Shown one piece after another: positions 19,493 to 64,000 of a stretch of 64,000 nt of DNA. The notes below the pieces were generated by a model, which worked only from the letters and a program-made list of their open reading frames with translations, did no database searches and was not told the origin of the DNA. The translations under genes and the position numbers were made by a program. Source of the DNA: Eledone cirrhosa. Taxonomy: Eukaryota. Every line of letters starts with the position of its first letter. Positions within the stretch are counted from its first letter, which is position 1. Location: positions 138,446,001-138,510,000 of the forward strand of contig OZ024742.1 in assembly GCA_964016885.1 (NCBI GenBank). Direction: 5' to 3'.

Positions 19493-19859
19493 GATGATGA
19501 TATATAATGAAGTTAAAAAGAATGTCAAAATAAATGGTGATTAGCGTTGTATTGAGTTTTTAGGTGAATATATATACACACACACATAAATATATTTCCA
19601 TATCATACATAGATATATATTTACTCATGCAATTACGGGTGGTTGTGTACCTTATTGCCTTTAGTCATTAACGCATAAACCTAAGGAAGCTAAAACATTA
19701 AAAGGTAAAAAAATAAGCATGAATGCATATAAGGGAAAGGGGTACTAATAAATGTTACTCTATATATAATTATAGTGAGTTGCTATTTATAATATTTAAT
19801 TAGGTTTATAGTATTTAATTAGGTTTATAGTATTTAAATGTTCTTCTATATTACAAACT

Positions 19860-20281
19860 ATGAAGAGTTGCTGTCTTTTATTTAATAAATCGTCCTTAGA
19901 TTTAGTAATTTCCAAGATCTCCCCTGAACATAATCTGCATTCCCTCCTGTTCCCAAGTTATGGAGTTCTTTGTAGAATGGTGTTCCACGATAACTTAAAA
20001 TATATTTATTTCTTTTTATAATTATTTACCGCTTCAGCTAAAGATGTGGTGTTAGCTAGTTTAGTATTGTTGAAACTACTAGAGGGTGTGTAAAATATTT
20101 TCTTAAATGTGTTTGATGTAGATCCTATATATGTTTTGTTGGAGTCTGTAGTAGACACAGTGCATTTATATATTACATTATTAATGAAACAGTTGCCATT
20201 TAAGGGGCAAATGCTTCTATTTCTGCAATTACAGTCATACGTAAGATGGTTGTTAGGGGTGCCTATACTATTCTCAGCCAT
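19860..20281 (-). pseudogene. Penelope-like GIY-YIG endonuclease remnant
   Basis: CNCRNRSICPLNGNC..NVIYKCTV...TYIGST. Confidence 0.85.
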
Positions 20282-20338
20282 TCCTATTGTAATTAATGAT
20301 AGCAGGAGAATGGAGGTTGCTTTGTGGGTGGTTTGGTG

Positions 20339-20856
20339 CTAGGGTTGTATTGTGATTTTGTGTTCTGTTGTTTCTGTATTGGTGATTTGGATGGTTGTGT
20401 TTTCCAGGTTGAAGGATTGTATTATTTGCCTTTTTAAAAGGTGCTGTCCTATTTAAATTATGTTGTGGTGGTGTAGTCGTATTATTTTTAAGTTTATAAA
20501 TGTTGTAGTTGCTTATTTTTTGCTGGAGATTGCTTGATGTAGAGTATGAGAATTTAACAGTATATTTGTTAAATATTTGGTGGTATCACATTTTCCACCA
20601 AATCAGAGATACCACCAAATATTTAACAAATATACTGTTAAATTCTCATACTCTACATCAAGCAATCTCCAGCAAACATAAGCAACTACAACATTTATAA
20701 ACTTAAAAATAATACGACTACACCACCACAACATAATTTAAATAGGACAGCACCTTTTAAAAAGGCAAATAATACAATCCTTCAACCTAGAAAACACAAC
20801 CAGCCAAAATCACCAACACAAAAACAACAGAACACAAAATCACAATACAACCCTAG
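20339..20856. repeat. Fold-back inverted duplication, ~250-bp arms, 20-nt spacer
   Basis: 20339-20587 is the reverse complement of 20608-20856 with few mismatches. Confidence 0.95.
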
Positions 20857-53317: not shown

Positions 53318-53860
53318 TCAGATATTCAGGACGTATCGGAGGGTTCTTGCTGTTCCAAGCAAGCATGCCTTTTGAAGCGTTCCAAAAAGCGTGAAGGGGC
53401 CGATTTTCTTTAACCATCCCTGGAAACCTTTGGAGATAGTCCCCAGTGCGCCTATGACAATCGGGATCACTTTGACTTCATGGCAGTTCCAGATCCTTTT
53501 CACCTCCCACTTTAGGTCCTGGTATCGGTTAATTTTCTCCCTCTCCTTCTCTTGCACTCTCGTGTCGAACGGGCAGGCCACATCCACAATCAGGCACGAT
53601 CTTTTTTCTTTGTCCACAACCACCAGGTCAGGTCTATTGTGCTCCAGTTTTTTGTCCGTCTGTATCCTAAAATCCGACAGCACCTTCACCTGACTGTTCT
53701 CCATCACCGCCTCTGGCCTATGCTCATACCATTTCTCAGAATGTGGTAGATTGTTTACTTTGCACAGGTGCCAGTGGATCACCCTGCCCATCACATCGTG
53801 TCTCCAGCCCTTATAGTGGGTCTGGGCTAGGTGTTTACACTCGGACACAATGTGAGCCAG
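53318..53860 (-). CDS. LINE ORF C-terminus: zinc-knuckle end + restriction-like endonuclease
   Basis: HIVSEC, RHD, NRPDLVVVD..IVDVACP, EK..RY.DL, IVIGALG. Confidence 0.93.
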   Translation of the reverse strand: MAHIVSECKHLAQTHYKGWRHDVMGRVIHWHLCKVNNLPHSEKWYEHRPEAVMENSQVKVLSDFRIQTDKKLEHNRPDLVVVDKEKRSCLIVDVACPFDTRVQEKEREKINRYQDLKWEVKRIWNCHEVKVIPIVIGALGTISKGFQGWLKKIGPFTLFGTLQKACLLGTARTLRYVLNI

Positions 53861-56564
53861 TCTCCTCTCTCTCTCCACAGATCCTGCACAGTGGGCTAGC
53901 CTCCTCCTTGTAGATATGGTGCTTCAACCACTTCGTTTTGAGGGCCTGCTCCTGCGCAGCCATTAGCATTCCTTCTGTAGCCTTTTTGAGGTCTCCTCTT
54001 CTCAACCAGTTCCATGTCTGTGGATCTCTAAATTCAGTTTTCTCAAAGAAGGTACTATGAAGGGATTTTCCCTTAAGGCTGCTCTTCCTCCTTGATGTTA
54101 TTTCCTCCTTGGACATCCCCTGGCCTACTGTCCCCTCCTTCAGTACAGTTCTGAGCATTGGCTCCTTACTATAGGTCACGTATTTGTATAGGTTGTTTTT
54201 CTCCATCTGAACACAGTCCTCTATGCTGATAAGACCTCTTCCACCCTCAGATCTCCTTAGGTAGAGTCTATCGACATCACTCCTCTTGTGGAACATGTTG
54301 TAGATAGTCAATAGCTTCCTAGTCTTCCTATCCATTTCTTTTTGTTCAGCAACATTCCATCTCAGAATTCCCGCACTGTACCTAATAATAGACACAGCTC
54401 GGGAATTTACTGCGCTTATGGCATTTCTGCTGTTCAGATGTGACTTCAATACGCTCCTTACTCTTCGAATGTATTCAGTTCTTAACAATTCCTTCATTTT
54501 TTTGTTCTTTATGCCATCAGCCTCCAGAACGCCCAAATACTTGTATCCTTCCTCAGAGTCAATTTCCTTTATCATCTCACCTGTTGGTATCTGGATCCCG
54601 TTACTTCTGCTCAACCTACCCCTCTTCATCACAATGACTCCACATTTACCAATACCAAACTGCATACATATATCACTGCTGAAAATACGGACAGTGTCAA
54701 CAAGCACATCCAACTCTTTCTCACTTTTCCCGAAGAGCTTAAGATCGTCCATGAAGAGGAGGTGATTGATGGTAAGCTCTCCCCTTCCCAACTTGTATCC
54801 TGCTCTCACTTTTCGCAGCATAATGGTCAAGGGCATCAGGGCAAGGACAAACAACAGAGGGGACAGGATATCTCCCTGGAAGATACCTCTCTTGATCTTC
54901 ACGCTTCCCAAGGATACTCCAGTTGATGTCAACTCTGTCTCCCAGGACCCCATACTCCTGCCCAGCAACTGTCTGATGTTATCTGCCACCCTGAAGACCT
55001 CCAGGCTTTTGGTGATCCAGGAATGAGGCACCATGTCAAATGCCTTTCTGTAGTCTATCCATCCCATGGCAAGATCAGTGTGTCTCCTCCTGCAATTCCC
55101 CATTACCATCTTATCAATAAGCAATTGGTCCTTTGTACCACGTGACTTCTTTCGGCATCCTTTCTGTTCGTCCGGTAACAAGTTGTTTGTGTGGAGGTGA
55201 TGGTAGATTTCCTCAGACACAATGCTCGTCAACAGTTTCCACATTACGGGCAGACATGTGATAGGTCTATAGTTGGTAACATCATTACCCTTGATTCGGT
55301 CTTTCATTATCAGAACTGTGGTACCTTTTGTCAACCACTCTGGCACCTCACCCGACACCAAGCAGTCATTGAACATGGCCGTCAGCTTCGGGTGGAGGGA
55401 TGTTAAATGTTTAATCCAATACCCCTGCACACCATCTGGGCCTGGTGATTTCCAGTTGGTTAGTTTTTTGGCTTGCCCCTTAAGAGTTTCAACTGTGATA
55501 CTCAAATCAGTCTGTTGTTGTGCCTTCTCACCGATCTCCCTCTGTACTGTCTCAATCCACCCTGCCTGGGCATTGTGTCTAACATCCTGCTCCCATATTC
55601 CTCTCCAGAATGTTTTAGCTTGTTCCGCCCCAGGGATCAAGTCGTTGCCTCTTTCTTTCCCCTCAAGCTGTCCAAACAGCATCTTCTGGTTGTTGTCGAA
55701 CATGCGGTTCTGTTTATACTGACTGACTCTGTTCTCGTATCGCCTGATTTTGGCACTATTTGCTACAATGCGTTGCTTCAATTCCTCTATGATAATATTT
55801 AGCTTTTTACTCCTAGTTTTGTATTTTATTTCCAGTCTATTTTTAGTGCCTATGTTTTTTAGTGTCCCATTCAGTAGTGACTCAAGCTTTCCTATGTCAT
55901 TTCTCATTTCCCCGATTTGCCCACTCAGTCGCTTCTTCCACCACGGCTCTGCTCTTTCTTGTCTGTTGTTTCCTCTCGCTTTTATACCAAGTAGTTTCCT
56001 CACCGTATTTGCTGTTGCTTTGAGGATATTGTTGCACTGGTGGAGACTCCTCGCCTCAAGGTATGGGATGACTTTGTTTACCTTAGCTGTTGTTTCTTTT
56101 AACTTTTTCCTGTCTACAAATCTTAGGTTCATAGGTCTCCCACTATCATTGTTCAATTCATCTACCACTAGATTTAGGATGTCAACCAAATCTTGTCCTA
56201 GCCCGTCAGCATTCATCTCCTCAGTGGCCGTATCTCTGTTCCAGGTATTATTTATCTCAGTATTCAGATCATTGTCTGCTTCGGGTGGTTCCTCCATTCT
56301 CAGGACCTCCTCACCTTCATTTCCCACCGGCTCGCCTGTCTGGCATACTACACCCGCCATCTCCAAGCCATTCTCTCTGCTCAGTTCCTCCAGTTCCAGC
56401 TCGCTTATCCACCCATTAGTTCTTATTACCCGAGCCTGCCCGGCCAATTTTTGTTCATCTAATTTAAATAAACCAATCTCGTTCCAGATGTTATGCATCC
56501 GTCTCCTGTAGCCCCTCTCCTTCGGGTTACTTTTCAGGTAGCATTGCATAACAGTTCTATTCAA
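53835..56564 (-). CDS. LINE ORF: N-terminal domain + reverse transcriptase (frameshifted in zinc knuckle)
   Basis: NWKSPGPDG, NYRPITCL, IDYRKAFD, GIFQGDILSPLLF, HLLFMDDLKL, YKYLG, GGRGL, CRIC. Confidence 0.95.
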   Translation of the reverse strand: MNRTVMQCYLKSNPKERGYRRRMHNIWNEIGLFKLDEQKLAGQARVIRTNGWISELELEELSRENGLEMAGVVCQTGEPVGNEGEEVLRMEEPPEADNDLNTEINNTWNRDTATEEMNADGLGQDLVDILNLVVDELNNDSGRPMNLRFVDRKKLKETTAKVNKVIPYLEARSLHQCNNILKATANTVRKLLGIKARGNNRQERAEPWWKKRLSGQIGEMRNDIGKLESLLNGTLKNIGTKNRLEIKYKTRSKKLNIIIEELKQRIVANSAKIRRYENRVSQYKQNRMFDNNQKMLFGQLEGKERGNDLIPGAEQAKTFWRGIWEQDVRHNAQAGWIETVQREIGEKAQQQTDLSITVETLKGQAKKLTNWKSPGPDGVQGYWIKHLTSLHPKLTAMFNDCLVSGEVPEWLTKGTTVLIMKDRIKGNDVTNYRPITCLPVMWKLLTSIVSEEIYHHLHTNNLLPDEQKGCRKKSRGTKDQLLIDKMVMGNCRRRHTDLAMGWIDYRKAFDMVPHSWITKSLEVFRVADNIRQLLGRSMGSWETELTSTGVSLGSVKIKRGIFQGDILSPLLFVLALMPLTIMLRKVRAGYKLGRGELTINHLLFMDDLKLFGKSEKELDVLVDTVRIFSSDICMQFGIGKCGVIVMKRGRLSRSNGIQIPTGEMIKEIDSEEGYKYLGVLEADGIKNKKMKELLRTEYIRRVRSVLKSHLNSRNAISAVNSRAVSIIRYSAGILRWNVAEQKEMDRKTRKLLTIYNMFHKRSDVDRLYLRRSEGGRGLISIEDCVQMEKNNLYKYVTYSKEPMLRTVLKEGTVGQGMSKEEITSRRKSSLKGKSLHSTFFEKTEFRDPQTWNWLRRGDLKKATEGMLMAAQEQALKTKWLKHHIYKEEASPLCRICGEREETGSHCVRV

Positions 56565-57787
56565 TTCTTTCGTCCAGTTGGTTCTGGCCCCTTTCCTTCT
56601 TCTTCTTCCTCCAACATCAGCAGTATTTGGTTGACAGTCAGGTTCCTGTTGGGTGAGAGTCTGTCACATGACGTTCTAGTCTCCATTTCACCGTTATTCG
56701 AACTGTTTATGTTCGATATTTAAACACTCTTATCGAGGATTGGCGAATGTATGTTTACATAGCCATCTGTGGATCCGCCATCCCACTTGGCCCTTGTGTG
56801 GCATTATCACCACGCTGTATACGAACACACATAAACAAACAAACACACGGGCAGAAAGAGCCCCAAAAATGAATAAGCATAAGTTTCATTGTAATGTAGT
56901 ATTCGAATGTCTGACTTAGTTTTTGTTTTTTAAGTTTTACTTTTTCCCCCCTCTTCTCTGTCCGTCCGCCTGCTTCTCTCTTCATTCTTATTTTCTTTAC
57001 GTTTTTGGGGTTTCTTTTTTTGTTTTTGTTTTTGTTTTTCTCTGTTTGTTTTTCTCGTTTTTTGCTGTTGTTGCTGTGCTGCTTTGGTTTTGTTGTTTGT
57101 TTTTTCTTTTTTCTTTTGAGTCTATCTATATATTTTGATGCCTTCCTCTTTGTTAGTAGTAGGGATTCTATAATGTGGGAGTAGTAGCAGCCAGCAGGGA
57201 GAAGTGGGAGAGGGCGGCGTTGGCGATACTGAGACAGTGGTGGTGGTGATGTCGATACCGAGGCAGTGGTGGCGGTGATGCGACCGTATTACTGTAGTGA
57301 TGGTGCTGTAGCGGTGGCAGCAGCAGTGAAGGAGTCAAGGGGTGGTGGCGGCGGTGATGGGATAGTGGTGGTAATGATGGCCGTAGTGAGCGGTGGCGGT
57401 GAAGGTGAAAATGCTGTTGTGTTTAGTGTACACAGATGATGGGGTGGGTGGTGTATCTAGTTTCTGGTGTTGGTGAGTTTAGCTGTCCTATATAGTGTAG
57501 CCAGAGGAGAGGAGGGGGGGGGGGGTTCTTCTTCTTCCATTTATAGCCATTTTTTTTTTGGATATACAGTGTACAATACAAAGTTGAATATTTGAATATT
57601 TGAGCCTTATAACAATATATTTTGGGTCCGAATTTTTTGGGGCTCAAGCCGGGTGCTTTACGTAGCATTTGTACTAAGAGTTGTTATTTCACAAATGATT
57701 TAAATATGTTAAAAATTCAAAACTTACGGGAGCGATTTCATGACCTCCGTCACCTCGTGCGTCTTCTTCCCTATTCCATCTTCTTCC

Positions 57788-60217: not shown

Positions 60218-60339
60218 ATCAGTTAATGTGACACCAATATGAGCTTGCAATGCTAAAGATTAAGGGGAATGATTTCATTATTCGTGTGTTTGTAGGTATT
60301 TCCGTTTCTGTGACTGCCTGTTTACGTAGTGTATGTGTA

Positions 60340-61452
60340 TAATTGGCTCGAGCTGGGAAGGGAAGCCTGCAGCGTCCAAGCCATGCTTAATGACCTCGTT
60401 GAGGGCAGCATGGCGTGGAATGCGGCCGGCACTGTGGCGACAGGAAAGCGAGTGAAGGCCGAAAGAGTCCACGGTGGAACCGCAGCGATAATGGTGTGGC
60501 TGGCAGATCGGGAGGCCGAGCCTCAAGGAAACGCCGATTCGCAGGCTATGGTTGTCTAGCTGCGTGCCAGTGGAAAAGGAGGGAAGGGCATGGAGCCAGG
60601 CACCACTGTGGGGTTTGGAGGCCGCACGAAAATAAGCAAGGCGGTGCTGGTCAAGCTGTCGCGTGAGCCTGTCTGAGGCCAGGCTGCACTGGATTTCATC
60701 CCAAGTGCGTTGAGGGGACTTGACGTCAACAGGGGGAGAAGGCGGAGGGACGTCTACTGGGCTAAGTCCCATCCAGTCCCACGCCTCACAGGCGGCCTCA
60801 CGTTCTCTGAACACAGAGGGTTCTGTTGTGTTTTGAAGAACTCTGCTGACGAGGACGCGGCACGAGGTTACCGACGAAAGATACGCCGGCAAAGCTAGTG
60901 AGATCGGGGACCGAAGGCCAAGACCGCTATACCTGACAGGTAAAGTGGCCTGTTGCCACCCTATGTCGTCAAACTTGGCGTTGCATATCCCCTCGGCTGT
61001 TGCTCGGATACAAGTATCGAGGTCAGCGAGGAGAGATGTCTGGGTGTAGCACAGAGCGCTGCGGAGTGTATAGAGGAGCTTCAGCATGGTGAAGCAGTTC
61101 CTCAGCAGAAAGAGAGCTGCGAGGCCGTCAATCAAGCCCAGTCGGCTCGTGAGAGTCTGGAGCTGTTGAAGCCTGGAACTGATGGTGAAGCGGATGGCCG
61201 GCGGTTGGATCGGTGACTCGAGGATGAGGACTTCCTCTTTGGGGGTCAACTGAACCTGGCGGAGAATGGACCGCACGTCCAAGACGGAGGCTGCAAAGCT
61301 CGCAGCATCGAGGCTGACATTCACCACCTCCAACTTGGCCAAGTTGACCTGGAGGCCGATTCCCGCCAGGACAGGAATCACCGATTGAAGGTCATGGCAG
61401 ACCGTCCGTACGGGCCCACCCAACGTAGCATCATCCAGATACCAAACGTCTA
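60340..61452 (-). pseudogene. CRE-clade LINE fragment (RT end to zinc knuckle), open frame, truncated at both ends
   Basis: VWYLDDATLGGP, LPVRYSGLGLRS, GAWLHALP, C.HYRCG..VDSFGLHSLSC, RHAALN. Confidence 0.88.
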
Positions 61453-61764
61453 TTGTGTATTACATTCGGAATTACCGTTCGACGTTGACAACAACTATTA
61501 TAATAAATACGAAATGTGCATTTTGAATATCGCTCCTACCATGGATTTAACTTTATTTTTTTACATATACATTCATTCAATTGTCTCTTCTACTGATGTG
61601 ATTAGAGTGCTTTCCTTTCTTTAATCACAAACATATAGGATCGGCTGCCCTAAATAATATAATAGCAGGGATAATCATTAACATACAAACTCACATCTTA
61701 ACACACATAGTATATATATATGTGTATGTGTATTTATGTATGTATGTAAACATATATATATATA

Positions 61765-61799
61765 TCATCAACCAACCAAATTACTTTTAAAAAATCCAC

Positions 61800-61855
<56 letters not shown>

Positions 61856-61890
61856 GTGGATTTTTTAAAAGTAATTTGGTTGGTTGATGA
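61765..61890. repeat. Perfect ~40-bp inverted repeat around (TA)n
   Basis: TCATCAACCAACC..CCACTATGTA-(TA)n-TACATAGTGG..GGTTGGTTGATGA. Confidence 0.95.
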
Positions 61891-62323
61891 CTGTCATGTG
61901 AATAAGTACAATAAATTTCGCGCCAGTTCGTATTCGAAAGTTCTTATTATATATACCTAAGCATATATAATAAGAACTTTCAAATAATAAAAACAATTAG
62001 CACCATGCTATTTTGTTAAATATGTCCTCATTCGCAGAGAGCCTAGAAATTCTATGGAAAATAGATTTTACAATACATTTAAGAATAGAGGGGGTAGTTA
62101 GAAAGTCTATTAATATTAGTTAGAATCTCCCCGAGTTTATGATTAGGACGGTAGAAATCTGTATCAAGGTCTAAAGTAGCATCTAGGAAATTAACGAATT
62201 TGTGGTTCGATTCGATAGTGATATCCTCGTTTTGTTTCTCATCTATCTAGACTAAATTTTAACCTGTAATCCATGTTTCATTTCTGTCACACCTAATTTC
62301 TCCCCCACCCTTCTCTCTCTCTA

Positions 62324-62453
<130 letters not shown>

Positions 62454-62573
62454 GTGATATTTGAATCTACTCTGATTTGGGCTTACCTTACTCATATATA
62501 TATATATGTTTTTGCATGTCAGTTAGATTCAAATTTACAAAGATTGGCATTGTATATATATATATGTGGATTT

Positions 62574-62633
62574 TTTCATTCTGATGACTGAAAGCAAATT
62601 TGTTTGCTTTCAAGAAACCACTGGTAAATGAAA
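62574..62633 (+). ncRNA. Type-I hammerhead ribozyme, best-preserved copy
   Basis: TTTCATT-CTGATGA-cTGAAAGCAAA tttg TTTGCTTTCAa-GAAAC-CACTG-GTA-AATGAAA: 7-bp stem I, 10-bp stem II, ACCA/TGGT stem III. Confidence 0.88.
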
Positions 62634-62658
62634 TAATTATCTTATGTTGTTTATTACA

Positions 62659-62710
<52 letters not shown>

Positions 62711-62879
62711 TGTAATAAACAATATAAGATAAGGAATTCATTTACCAGTGGATATATTATTTGTTTGTTAAAATAATTAACTTAAATTAATTCAACAGTT
62801 AAACACACATAGGAATAATAAGGTTGTTACCAAAGAGCCAGAAGATTGACAATTCGACCCTAAATGTCACTAATAGCCC

Positions 62880-63276
62880 AAGGAAAGCCATGAACGACAC
62901 CACATCTTTTTAACTTTGATTTTGAAAGTAGGTTTATAATTATTAATTTTCCTTATGTCTTTGTAGCTGTCTCGGCAGCCTAGTTGGATAAATCATAGAG
63001 GATGGTGATCCTGGCCTGAAGTTCGAGCCTCGTCGGGAGTAGGGTTCCCTGCAAACCTTTTCATTTTTTTTTACAATGGGATGTAAAATAAAATCTGAAA
63101 AAGATTACATGTACCGCTTGACCAGGATTGAACCGAAGACCAGGATCTCCTCCGTCTCTAGTACCTACCGCTAAGCCACTGAAACAACAACGAAATTCTA
63201 CTGAAAATTCACACTTATAAACCTACTTTCAAAATTTCAATACAAAATGATGTGGTGTCGTTCATGTCTTTCTTAA
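62880..63276. mobile_element. MITE-like fold-back element containing two convergent tRNA-like heads
   Basis: ~60-bp imperfect TIR (CATGAACGACACCACATC..TTTTGAAAGTAGGTTTATAA and its reverse complement); internal A/B boxes on both strands. Confidence 0.75.
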
Positions 63277-63368
63277 TGTTATTGCTCCTACTTAAGGTCG
63301 ACTTCTAAACTACATTCTCGTTTTGTTCCATAAACTACATTCTCGTTTTGTTTCTCATCTATCTTGAC

Positions 63369-64000
63369 CAGGCATGTCAAACATACGGCCCTCACAAAGG
63401 TTTCTACAACAGGAACATGTTTTATCTTCGTAATATAACATTTTAAAAGATTTCGGTAGATTGTTTGTTTCTTTTGTTTTTTGTTTTTTGTGCGATTTTT
63501 ATTAACTACTTTTAACTTCCGGCGAATCACGCGCAGCTAATTAAGAGTTGTAAATAGAAAATTTTCTTTCAAAATTTCAAAAGTTTTTTTTTCTTTTTAA
63601 AATGGTTAGTGCTCCTCCAGCTAAGAGGAAAAAGGAATTACAGTATTTTTGCAGTGGGAATTACAGTACTTTTGCGCAACGGTGAACGGAAAGATGCACT
63701 GTTTAATTTGCAACATCTGAATCACCACGCCAAAAGTGTTTAATTTGAAAAGGCATGATGAAACGAACCATCGATTTTACGATAAATATGAAGGCCCAAT
63801 CAATACGTGTTGCAAGACTCAAGGAATTGAAGGCTAACTTGACACAGTAACATACCTATTTTATGTAAAATCAGGAAGAGAATGTCGTTTCCCTTACTGC
63901 AAGCTATGAGTTCAGCCAAATGATCGCCTTGAGTGGGAAATCTTACAGTGAAGGAGATTGTGTAAAGCAATGCCTTGTAAAAACAGCTGGAATTGTATGT
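63369..64000 (+). mobile_element. 5' part of a second hAT (SPIN/GTF2IRD2-like) with decayed transposase from 63602
   Basis: Terminus CAGGCATGTCAAACATACGGCCC; PAKRK..WELQYFC..KMHCLICN..FNLKRHDETNH..GKSYSEGDCVKQCL. Confidence 0.85.

Follow-up and report, generated by a model that had tools for sequence, protein, structure and literature searches.

The Hydra clade of EN+ Penelope-like elements (PLEs) is defined, in the accessible parts of its description, by RWK and DKT motifs, a CxCX5C linker, and CxxC and CxH flanking the conserved E and N of the EN domain; nearly all of its families insert in (TA)n, and its elements are said to be "generally" under 3 kb, a size given in that text as a tendency and not as a diagnostic trait (Craig et al. 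2021, PMC8557442). Do the hammerheads carried by such elements cut at all? According to the sections at hand of the respective reports, a metazoan PLE hammerhead showed no cutting as a monomer and weak cutting as a dimer (PMC4209133), and that of the Anolis element PAc cut solely with the protein present; the PAc protein, predicted to form a dimer, cuts and extends both DNA strands (PMC11167929). Self-priming on the sense template has been named as a route to tail-to-tail copies in the consulted portion of the work on Adineta vaga (PMC3846280).

Here we analyse a hammerhead and its mirrored flank within a 64,000-nucleotide stretch of the Eledone cirrhosa genome, hereafter the window (Table 1). 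Our preferred reading, to which we assign a probability of roughly 0.87, is that the hammerhead is the standard motif of the 3' end of a young Hydra-clade PLE, and that the mirror is a second, shorter 3' end of this element, facing the first across the TA target; it most likely arose as a retrotransposition by-product and has no part in regulation.

Table 1. Features of the hammerhead locus and its surroundings, in window coordinates unless a locus is named
Feature	Position	Strand	Remark
942-aa frame with RVT_1 domain (E 1e-23)	53835-56663	-	non-LTR retrotransposon, unrelated to hammerhead
Retroelement-like frame, 393 aa	60278-61459	-	DNA 90% identical to a retroelement piece in L081
Unrelated repeat, left flank, interrupted by (CT)n	62221-62552	.	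other part of the repeat at 62752-63368; 84-86% matches to L081 230-443
Short TA run, 5' junction of left copy	62553-62565	.	
5'-truncated 3' end (pLTR) of Hydra-clade PLE	62568-62662	+	sequence matches; ends at the common family 3' end ACATAAC
Type I hammerhead motif, PLE type	62574-62633	+	ordering, folding, covariation; Hydra layout as in the consulted part of PMC8557442 File S2
Stem I, 7 bp	62574-62580/62627-62633	+	
Core CUGAUGA	62581-62587	+	
Stem II, 10 bp, 4-nt loop	62589-62598/62603-62612	+	behind a C·A mismatch
Core GAA	62614-62616	+	
Stem III, 3 bp, 3-nt loop	62617-62619/62623-62625	+	
Stem III near-palindrome	62617-62625	+	possible pairing with a second copy
Predicted cut, UA site	after A62626	+	
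(TA)22 tract between two facing 3' ends	62663-62706	.	44 nt; insertion target of the family
Second 5'-truncated copy of the same end, inverted, 45 nt	62707-62751	-	hammerhead core absent
Unrelated repeat bounding the mirror	62752-63368	.	joined to the arm via a few TA bases; 79% match to L081 4379-5046
Broken transposase-like frames	63369-64000 (one starting near 63600); also L082 1-1300		
Family loci with ORF and hammerhead on the same strand	L187, L188, L189, L191, L193, L194, L195, L196		

The motif is a genuine PLE-type hammerhead, but not a canonical one. Its CUGANGA ... GAA core, U-H cut site and three stems are all present. In contrast, the G10.1-C11.1 pair that closes stem II at the core of canonical hammerheads is replaced by C62588 and A62613, which stay unpaired. 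The first-pass annotation had described a textbook hammerhead with perfect core and stems. The core motifs are indeed there and the cut it placed after A62626 agrees with a type I layout, but the stems fall short of perfection, stem III having just three pairs, and "textbook" does not apply to a motif in which stem II meets the core through a C·A mismatch and for which an Rfam scan of the window at the gathering threshold returned no match to any family. What the motif does possess are the marks of PLE hammerheads: type I topology, a position in a pLTR near the 3' end, an extra base after A9, and a short, near-palindromic stem III. The minimal 60-mer is predicted to fold as a hammerhead (MFE -12.8, z -2.1), and the stem III palindrome could pair with that of a second copy at 8 of 9 positions (predicted -8.2 kcal/mol). 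Mismatches at 10.1-11.1 slow hammerhead cleavage. We found nothing on such mismatches in the part of PMC544870 that was accessible, and hammerheads go unmentioned in the main text of PMC13282606, as far as it was available. Elsewhere in the window, at 838-900, a second CUGAUGA is followed by GAAA, with no convincing stems seen.

Two lines of evidence make the motif more than a chance resemblance: it is one among thousands of family copies, and its stem II covaries between subfamilies. From the fetched loci we took 70 distinct hammerheads with a near-intact core and hand-picked 22 to represent the subfamilies. Across these 22 rows, both partners have changed in six stem II pairs, with a score that none of 500 shuffles reached. 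N7 and the stem III loop are variable, and the core-adjacent 10.1-11.1 position is unpaired in 14 of the 22. As judged from the alignment, this covariation indicates that selection acted on the parent lineage rather than on the copy in the window.

To which family does the unit belong? The family is a young and abundant PLE with thousands of copies, and the locus is ordinary transposon debris. A 23-mer from the unit has 3,472 exact matches in the 3.0-Gb genome, compared with none for the reversed control. A search with the unit yielded 985 first-look candidates, the best ones 94-100% identical, and several other loci match it perfectly over query positions 29-131. The left unit itself comprises 95 bases and is cut short at its 5' side. 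Copies of the family end in one of two ways, with ACATAAC followed directly by (TA)n, or with a tail of about 65 nt before (TA)n; among the first 30 matches by position, 14 run straight into TA, 15 do so after the tail, and one ends otherwise. At the 24 places behind these 30 matches, head-to-head inverted copies occur at 12 and tail-to-tail copies at none. Such 3' ends in (TA)n, the optional tail, 5' truncation and inverted 5' copies are marks of EN+ PLEs, as the accessible parts of PMC8557442 and PMC11167929 describe them. In a literature search mostly outside subscription journals and Repbase/Dfam, no paper describing the family came up, and it appears to be a Hydra-clade PLE absent from the supplement of PMC8557442 in so far as that supplement was accessible.

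We identified the parent element by walking upstream of the hammerhead, through a long region of simple sequence, to the end of an ORF. Fourteen of the 30 loci were extended, chosen for long ORF remnants and with at least two of them already known to bear a hammerhead; in 8 of these 14, ORF, 3' UTR, hammerhead and TA follow in order on one strand (Table 1). The ORF is about 2.1 kb long and broken in each copy examined. It encodes RWK, DKT, an RT with YRDD, a CxCX5C linker and a GIY-YIG-type domain in which CxxC and CxH flank the conserved E and N of EN; RWK together with DKT (replacing DKG) was found in translations from L188, L190 and L191. A single ORF with RT and C-terminal GIY-YIG thus stands upstream of the pLTR at these other loci; the window copy itself lacks it. 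Pieces of the ORF gave no match in a Pfam search. ORF and hammerhead are separated by 1.1-4.2 kb, made up of simple sequence together with nested insertions, so that the element, with its ORF of about 2.1 kb, is not short in the manner of Hydra elements, the distance being inflated by the nested insertions. Judged on its motifs and its insertion in (TA)n, the parent element probably belongs to the Hydra clade. A Neptune label was considered and rejected: the CX2-5CxxC linker of Neptune/Nematis is absent, the linker here being CxCX5C. Likewise rejected as parent was the ORF beside L078 and L079, which belongs to a different PLE family that has a 3' end of its own.

This other family (L079 6310-6500, minus strand; L083-L107) is also young and Hydra-like, sharing 36-40% protein identity with the first. 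Its 3' end has a hammerhead-like fold in which CAGAAGA replaces CUGANGA. In L078 and L079 its ORF joins the UTR of the first family with no TA in between, possibly by a template switch between the two families. Window positions 19835-20672 contain old remains of a further Hydra-like ORF, whose identity to the RT-EN part of the family is about 30%.

The statement that no coding element is adjacent to the hammerhead can be upheld for the element's own ORF. It does not extend to the frames at 60278-61459 and from about 63600, both of which are unrelated to the hammerhead element. The former, which had no Pfam match, we take to be CRE-like; the frames at 63369-64000 and in L082 1-1300 are presumably hAT/GTF2IRD2-like, and two pieces of these tried against Pfam gave no match.

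We then consider the mirror. The inverted repeat of the hammerhead's 3' flank was correctly spotted at first pass: 62618-62662 and 62707-62751 are identical at 41 of 45 bases, with four mismatches and the 44-nt TA tract between them, and in the assembly the mirror does stop at CCACTGG, as had been claimed. All four differences fall in the right arm, the left copy being equal to the consensus, and none of them marks a subfamily. The exact variant of the right arm is unique in the genome, and the idea that it represents a subfamily was accordingly rejected, since it was found solely at 62707-62751; its single G>A change was counted 76 times, compared with 3,472, which is background level. Left and right of the pair lie parts of one unrelated repeat, which implies that a single TA tract probably received both copies. 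This repeat is bounded by TA runs, has internal inverted arms (62846-62911/63244-63309) and tRNA-like stretches recognised by eye, and adjoins a family copy in L081 too. Among the 44 TA tracts of the window, clearly mirrored non-repetitive flanks were seen at two, the hammerhead tract and one within 61765-61890. The latter carries a perfect 39-nt mirror around (TA)24; its right arm runs on into another repeat family and its left arm copies bases that other members lack, which suggests a local fold-back.

Is such an arrangement peculiar to this locus? We searched the genome for facing family 3' ends with at most 38 nt between them, a limit that the window pair exceeds. The pattern gave 37 matches against 4 for the control. 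We fetched 35 of the 37: 13 have both arms of at least 29 nt, 9 combine a family arm with a short arm, and 13 are noise (simple sequence, or very short on both sides). Arm lengths vary widely among the pairs, and the stop at stem III is therefore no rule of the family. Some head-to-head inversions (L177/L178, L288) do have their centre at stem III. In six loci (L032, L036, L038, L040, L280, L282), very short second 3' ends of 10-14 nt face a long copy across TA, possibly because priming on the opposite strand was aborted. Within the final 29 nt, the arms of the 13 pairs differ at 9 positions, compared with 21.2 after shuffling of partners (p 0.0007). This likeness argues that many pairs derive from one template or one burst; private changes are common to both arms in L276, L288 and L285. 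In contrast, L039, L284 and L287 join different subfamilies, which indicates separate insertions there. Many tail-to-tail pairs likely arise in one coupled event, but the likeness of their arms could also come from a single subfamily inserting in bursts into a fresh TA tract. In our literature search, mostly outside subscription journals, we found no counted tail-to-tail PLE pairs.

How might two facing ends come about? The element's endonuclease would nick the TA tract, reverse transcription primed at the nick would begin at the internal site usual for the family, and synthesis would halt after 95 nt on the left and 45 nt on the right. In a coupled event, one RNP would nick both strands with the TA between them staying paired, or fold-back would occur at a TA hairpin. 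For the two arms in the window, we give such a coupled event about an even chance, and two separate insertions a chance somewhat below even; the choice between them at this locus is close to balanced. If a TA tract is nicked on opposite strands and each nick is extended from the RT start that is normally used, geometry would set the product: a head-to-head inversion if the DNA between the nicks melts, a tail-to-tail pair if it stays paired. That tail-to-tail (TA)n pairs represent a second outcome of one PLE insertion reaction, carried out by a dimeric RNP, is a tentative proposal that we consider the less probable case.

An origin at the DNA level is the strongest rival to this retrotransposition reading, although we regard it as improbable. 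After one insertion, a polymerase engaged in replication or repair would fold back at a (TA)n hairpin, copy 45 nt of the left copy and return to the flank. The TA-centred mirror at 61765-61890, perfect and including bases private to its locus, speaks for such events, as does the greater likeness of tail-to-tail arms relative to shuffled pairs. However, the arms at the hammerhead differ at 4 of 45 positions even though the left copy equals the consensus, and at least three pairs, the ones named above, unite different subfamilies. Moreover, the mirror starts exactly at the family 3' end on both sides in 13 of 13 other pairs, a regularity that the search pattern itself required. Head-to-head partners, too, differ by 4 in 45 in three cases.

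A chimeric fold-back read at the TA tract, in assembly or library, is a very unlikely source of the mirror. In four sequencing runs, no read or contig crosses the tract or includes 62710-62739, reads compatible with both arms having been assigned to the left one, so that the right arm is known from the assembly only; contigs of run X1 begin at 62752. Yet a chimeric read should yield an exact mirror, not one with four differences, the arm meets a known repeat right at that repeat's boundary, and pairs of mixed subfamily exist elsewhere.

Could the hammerhead instead be an active ribozyme put to use by the host, with the downstream antisense arm shutting it off in read-through RNA? The core is intact, stem II covaries across subfamilies, and the arm could pair with stem I much as the first-pass annotation had imagined: folding predicts that the 3' strand of stem I and the stem III sequence become sequestered. 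With a partial arm, the predicted pairing is 0.65 for stem I and 0.57 for stem III; with the full arm both fall to 0.00, and stems I and III would be abolished once about position 62742 has been transcribed. Transcription would finish the ribozyme some 110 nt ahead of the part of the arm that blocks it. However, the 97-nt copy without the arm already favours another fold (stem I probability 0.05), the covariation would reflect selection on the parent element and not on the window copy, the unit equals many other copies, and the locus sits in a pile of repeats. If cut RNA were copied frequently, copies should begin at 62627. We counted 94 breaks just 5' of the 23-mer and 78 one base further 3' (p 0.19), no excess at the cut site, in a test for which about half of 30 loci per set were true ends, a rough script miscalled a few sister-subfamily copies, and arms joined to a TA run ending in A are missed. 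Arms that start exactly at the predicted cut site were seen in L273 and L286 (2 of the 13 tail-to-tail pairs), L172/L173 and L175; those in L273 and L286 count for little, as they were spotted post hoc. If the hammerhead is active at all, we infer that it would cleave the RNA of the parent element, and would do so weakly, in dimeric form or with the help of the protein encoded there. A stand-alone, designed or specially active ribozyme finds no support: the unit is a truncated transposon end identical to many copies, the copies show no cut-site excess, and the antisense arm is a piece of the same PLE. A host-used switch therefore seems to us scarcely credible.

Equally far-fetched is a non-autonomous retrozyme, a tandem hammerhead repeat making circles, for although the motif is of type I with a short near-palindromic stem III and retrozymes reportedly derive from PLE pLTRs (bioRxiv 10.64898/2026.07.22.740005), the locus has no tandem array, the ORF-less tandem repeats of non-LTR retrozymes are not what we find, and upstream the copies run into a 3' UTR and ORF.

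By itself, the locus is of minor importance: it is a remnant from a transposon family that numbers thousands of copies. How tail-to-tail pairs originate is the point of more general interest. If one event of two-strand priming makes them, they offer a simple test of the still incomplete model of PLE integration; should they and head-to-head inversions be two outcomes of one reaction, the genome would keep a countable record of two-strand priming by PLEs. The subfamily series, with its hammerhead covariation, is good material for asking whether PLE hammerheads cut, and the genome counts, which lack a footprint of cutting, agree with the PAc result as given in the accessible part of PMC11167929.

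How does the family compare with described systems, as far as the consulted sections of the respective papers go? With the Hydra clade of C-terminal EN+ PLEs (Craig et al. 2021, PMC8557442), it shares the single ORF with RWK, DKT, CxCX5C and CxxC/CxH, insertion in (TA)n, a type I hammerhead near the 3' end, inverted 5' copies and a tail. In most Hydra hammerheads stem II is flanked on either side by one unpaired base and stem III is short, as is the case here. Unlike in the published elements, the 3' UTR is longer and rich in microsatellites, and the tail measures about 65 nt instead of 30-40. Hydra-1_Obim is nearest by eye; its hammerhead sequence differs and its protein is visibly diverged in the same by-eye comparison, and the family here looks like a distinct one.

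The minimal hammerheads of PLEs (Cervera and de la Pena 2014, PMC4209133), as the available text presents them, have in common with ours a long stem II, the extra base after A9, a palindromic 15.2-16.2 region, and an occurrence mostly as dispersed single motifs from truncated PLEs. In contrast to them, the motif here has a real stem III of 3 bp and a stem I of 7 bp, and its stem II opens with a U-A pair, for which a sister subfamily has C-G, followed outward by G-C as the next pair.

PAc, a Poseidon element of Anolis (Frangieh et al. 2024, PMC11167929), resembles the family, in the portion of that study at hand, in having two 3' ends, with and without a tail, and an AT-rich target; the two ends here, differing by the tail of about 65 nt, parallel the pair of RT start sites known for PAc. 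Neither gives any indication of ends at the cut site, as judged from RNA reads in PAc and from genomic copies here. PAc differs in belonging to the Penelope/Poseidon clade, without a linker zinc finger, and in an ORF that starts inside the hammerhead, whereas the ORF start lies outside hammerhead and tail in our family. Finally, head-to-head inversions on palindromes are the common form in Adineta vaga Penelope (Arkhipova et al. 2013, PMC3846280), as they are here; tail-to-tail copies figure in the accessible part of that work as an argument and an uncounted class, while in the present genome 13 further (TA)n pairs were examined.
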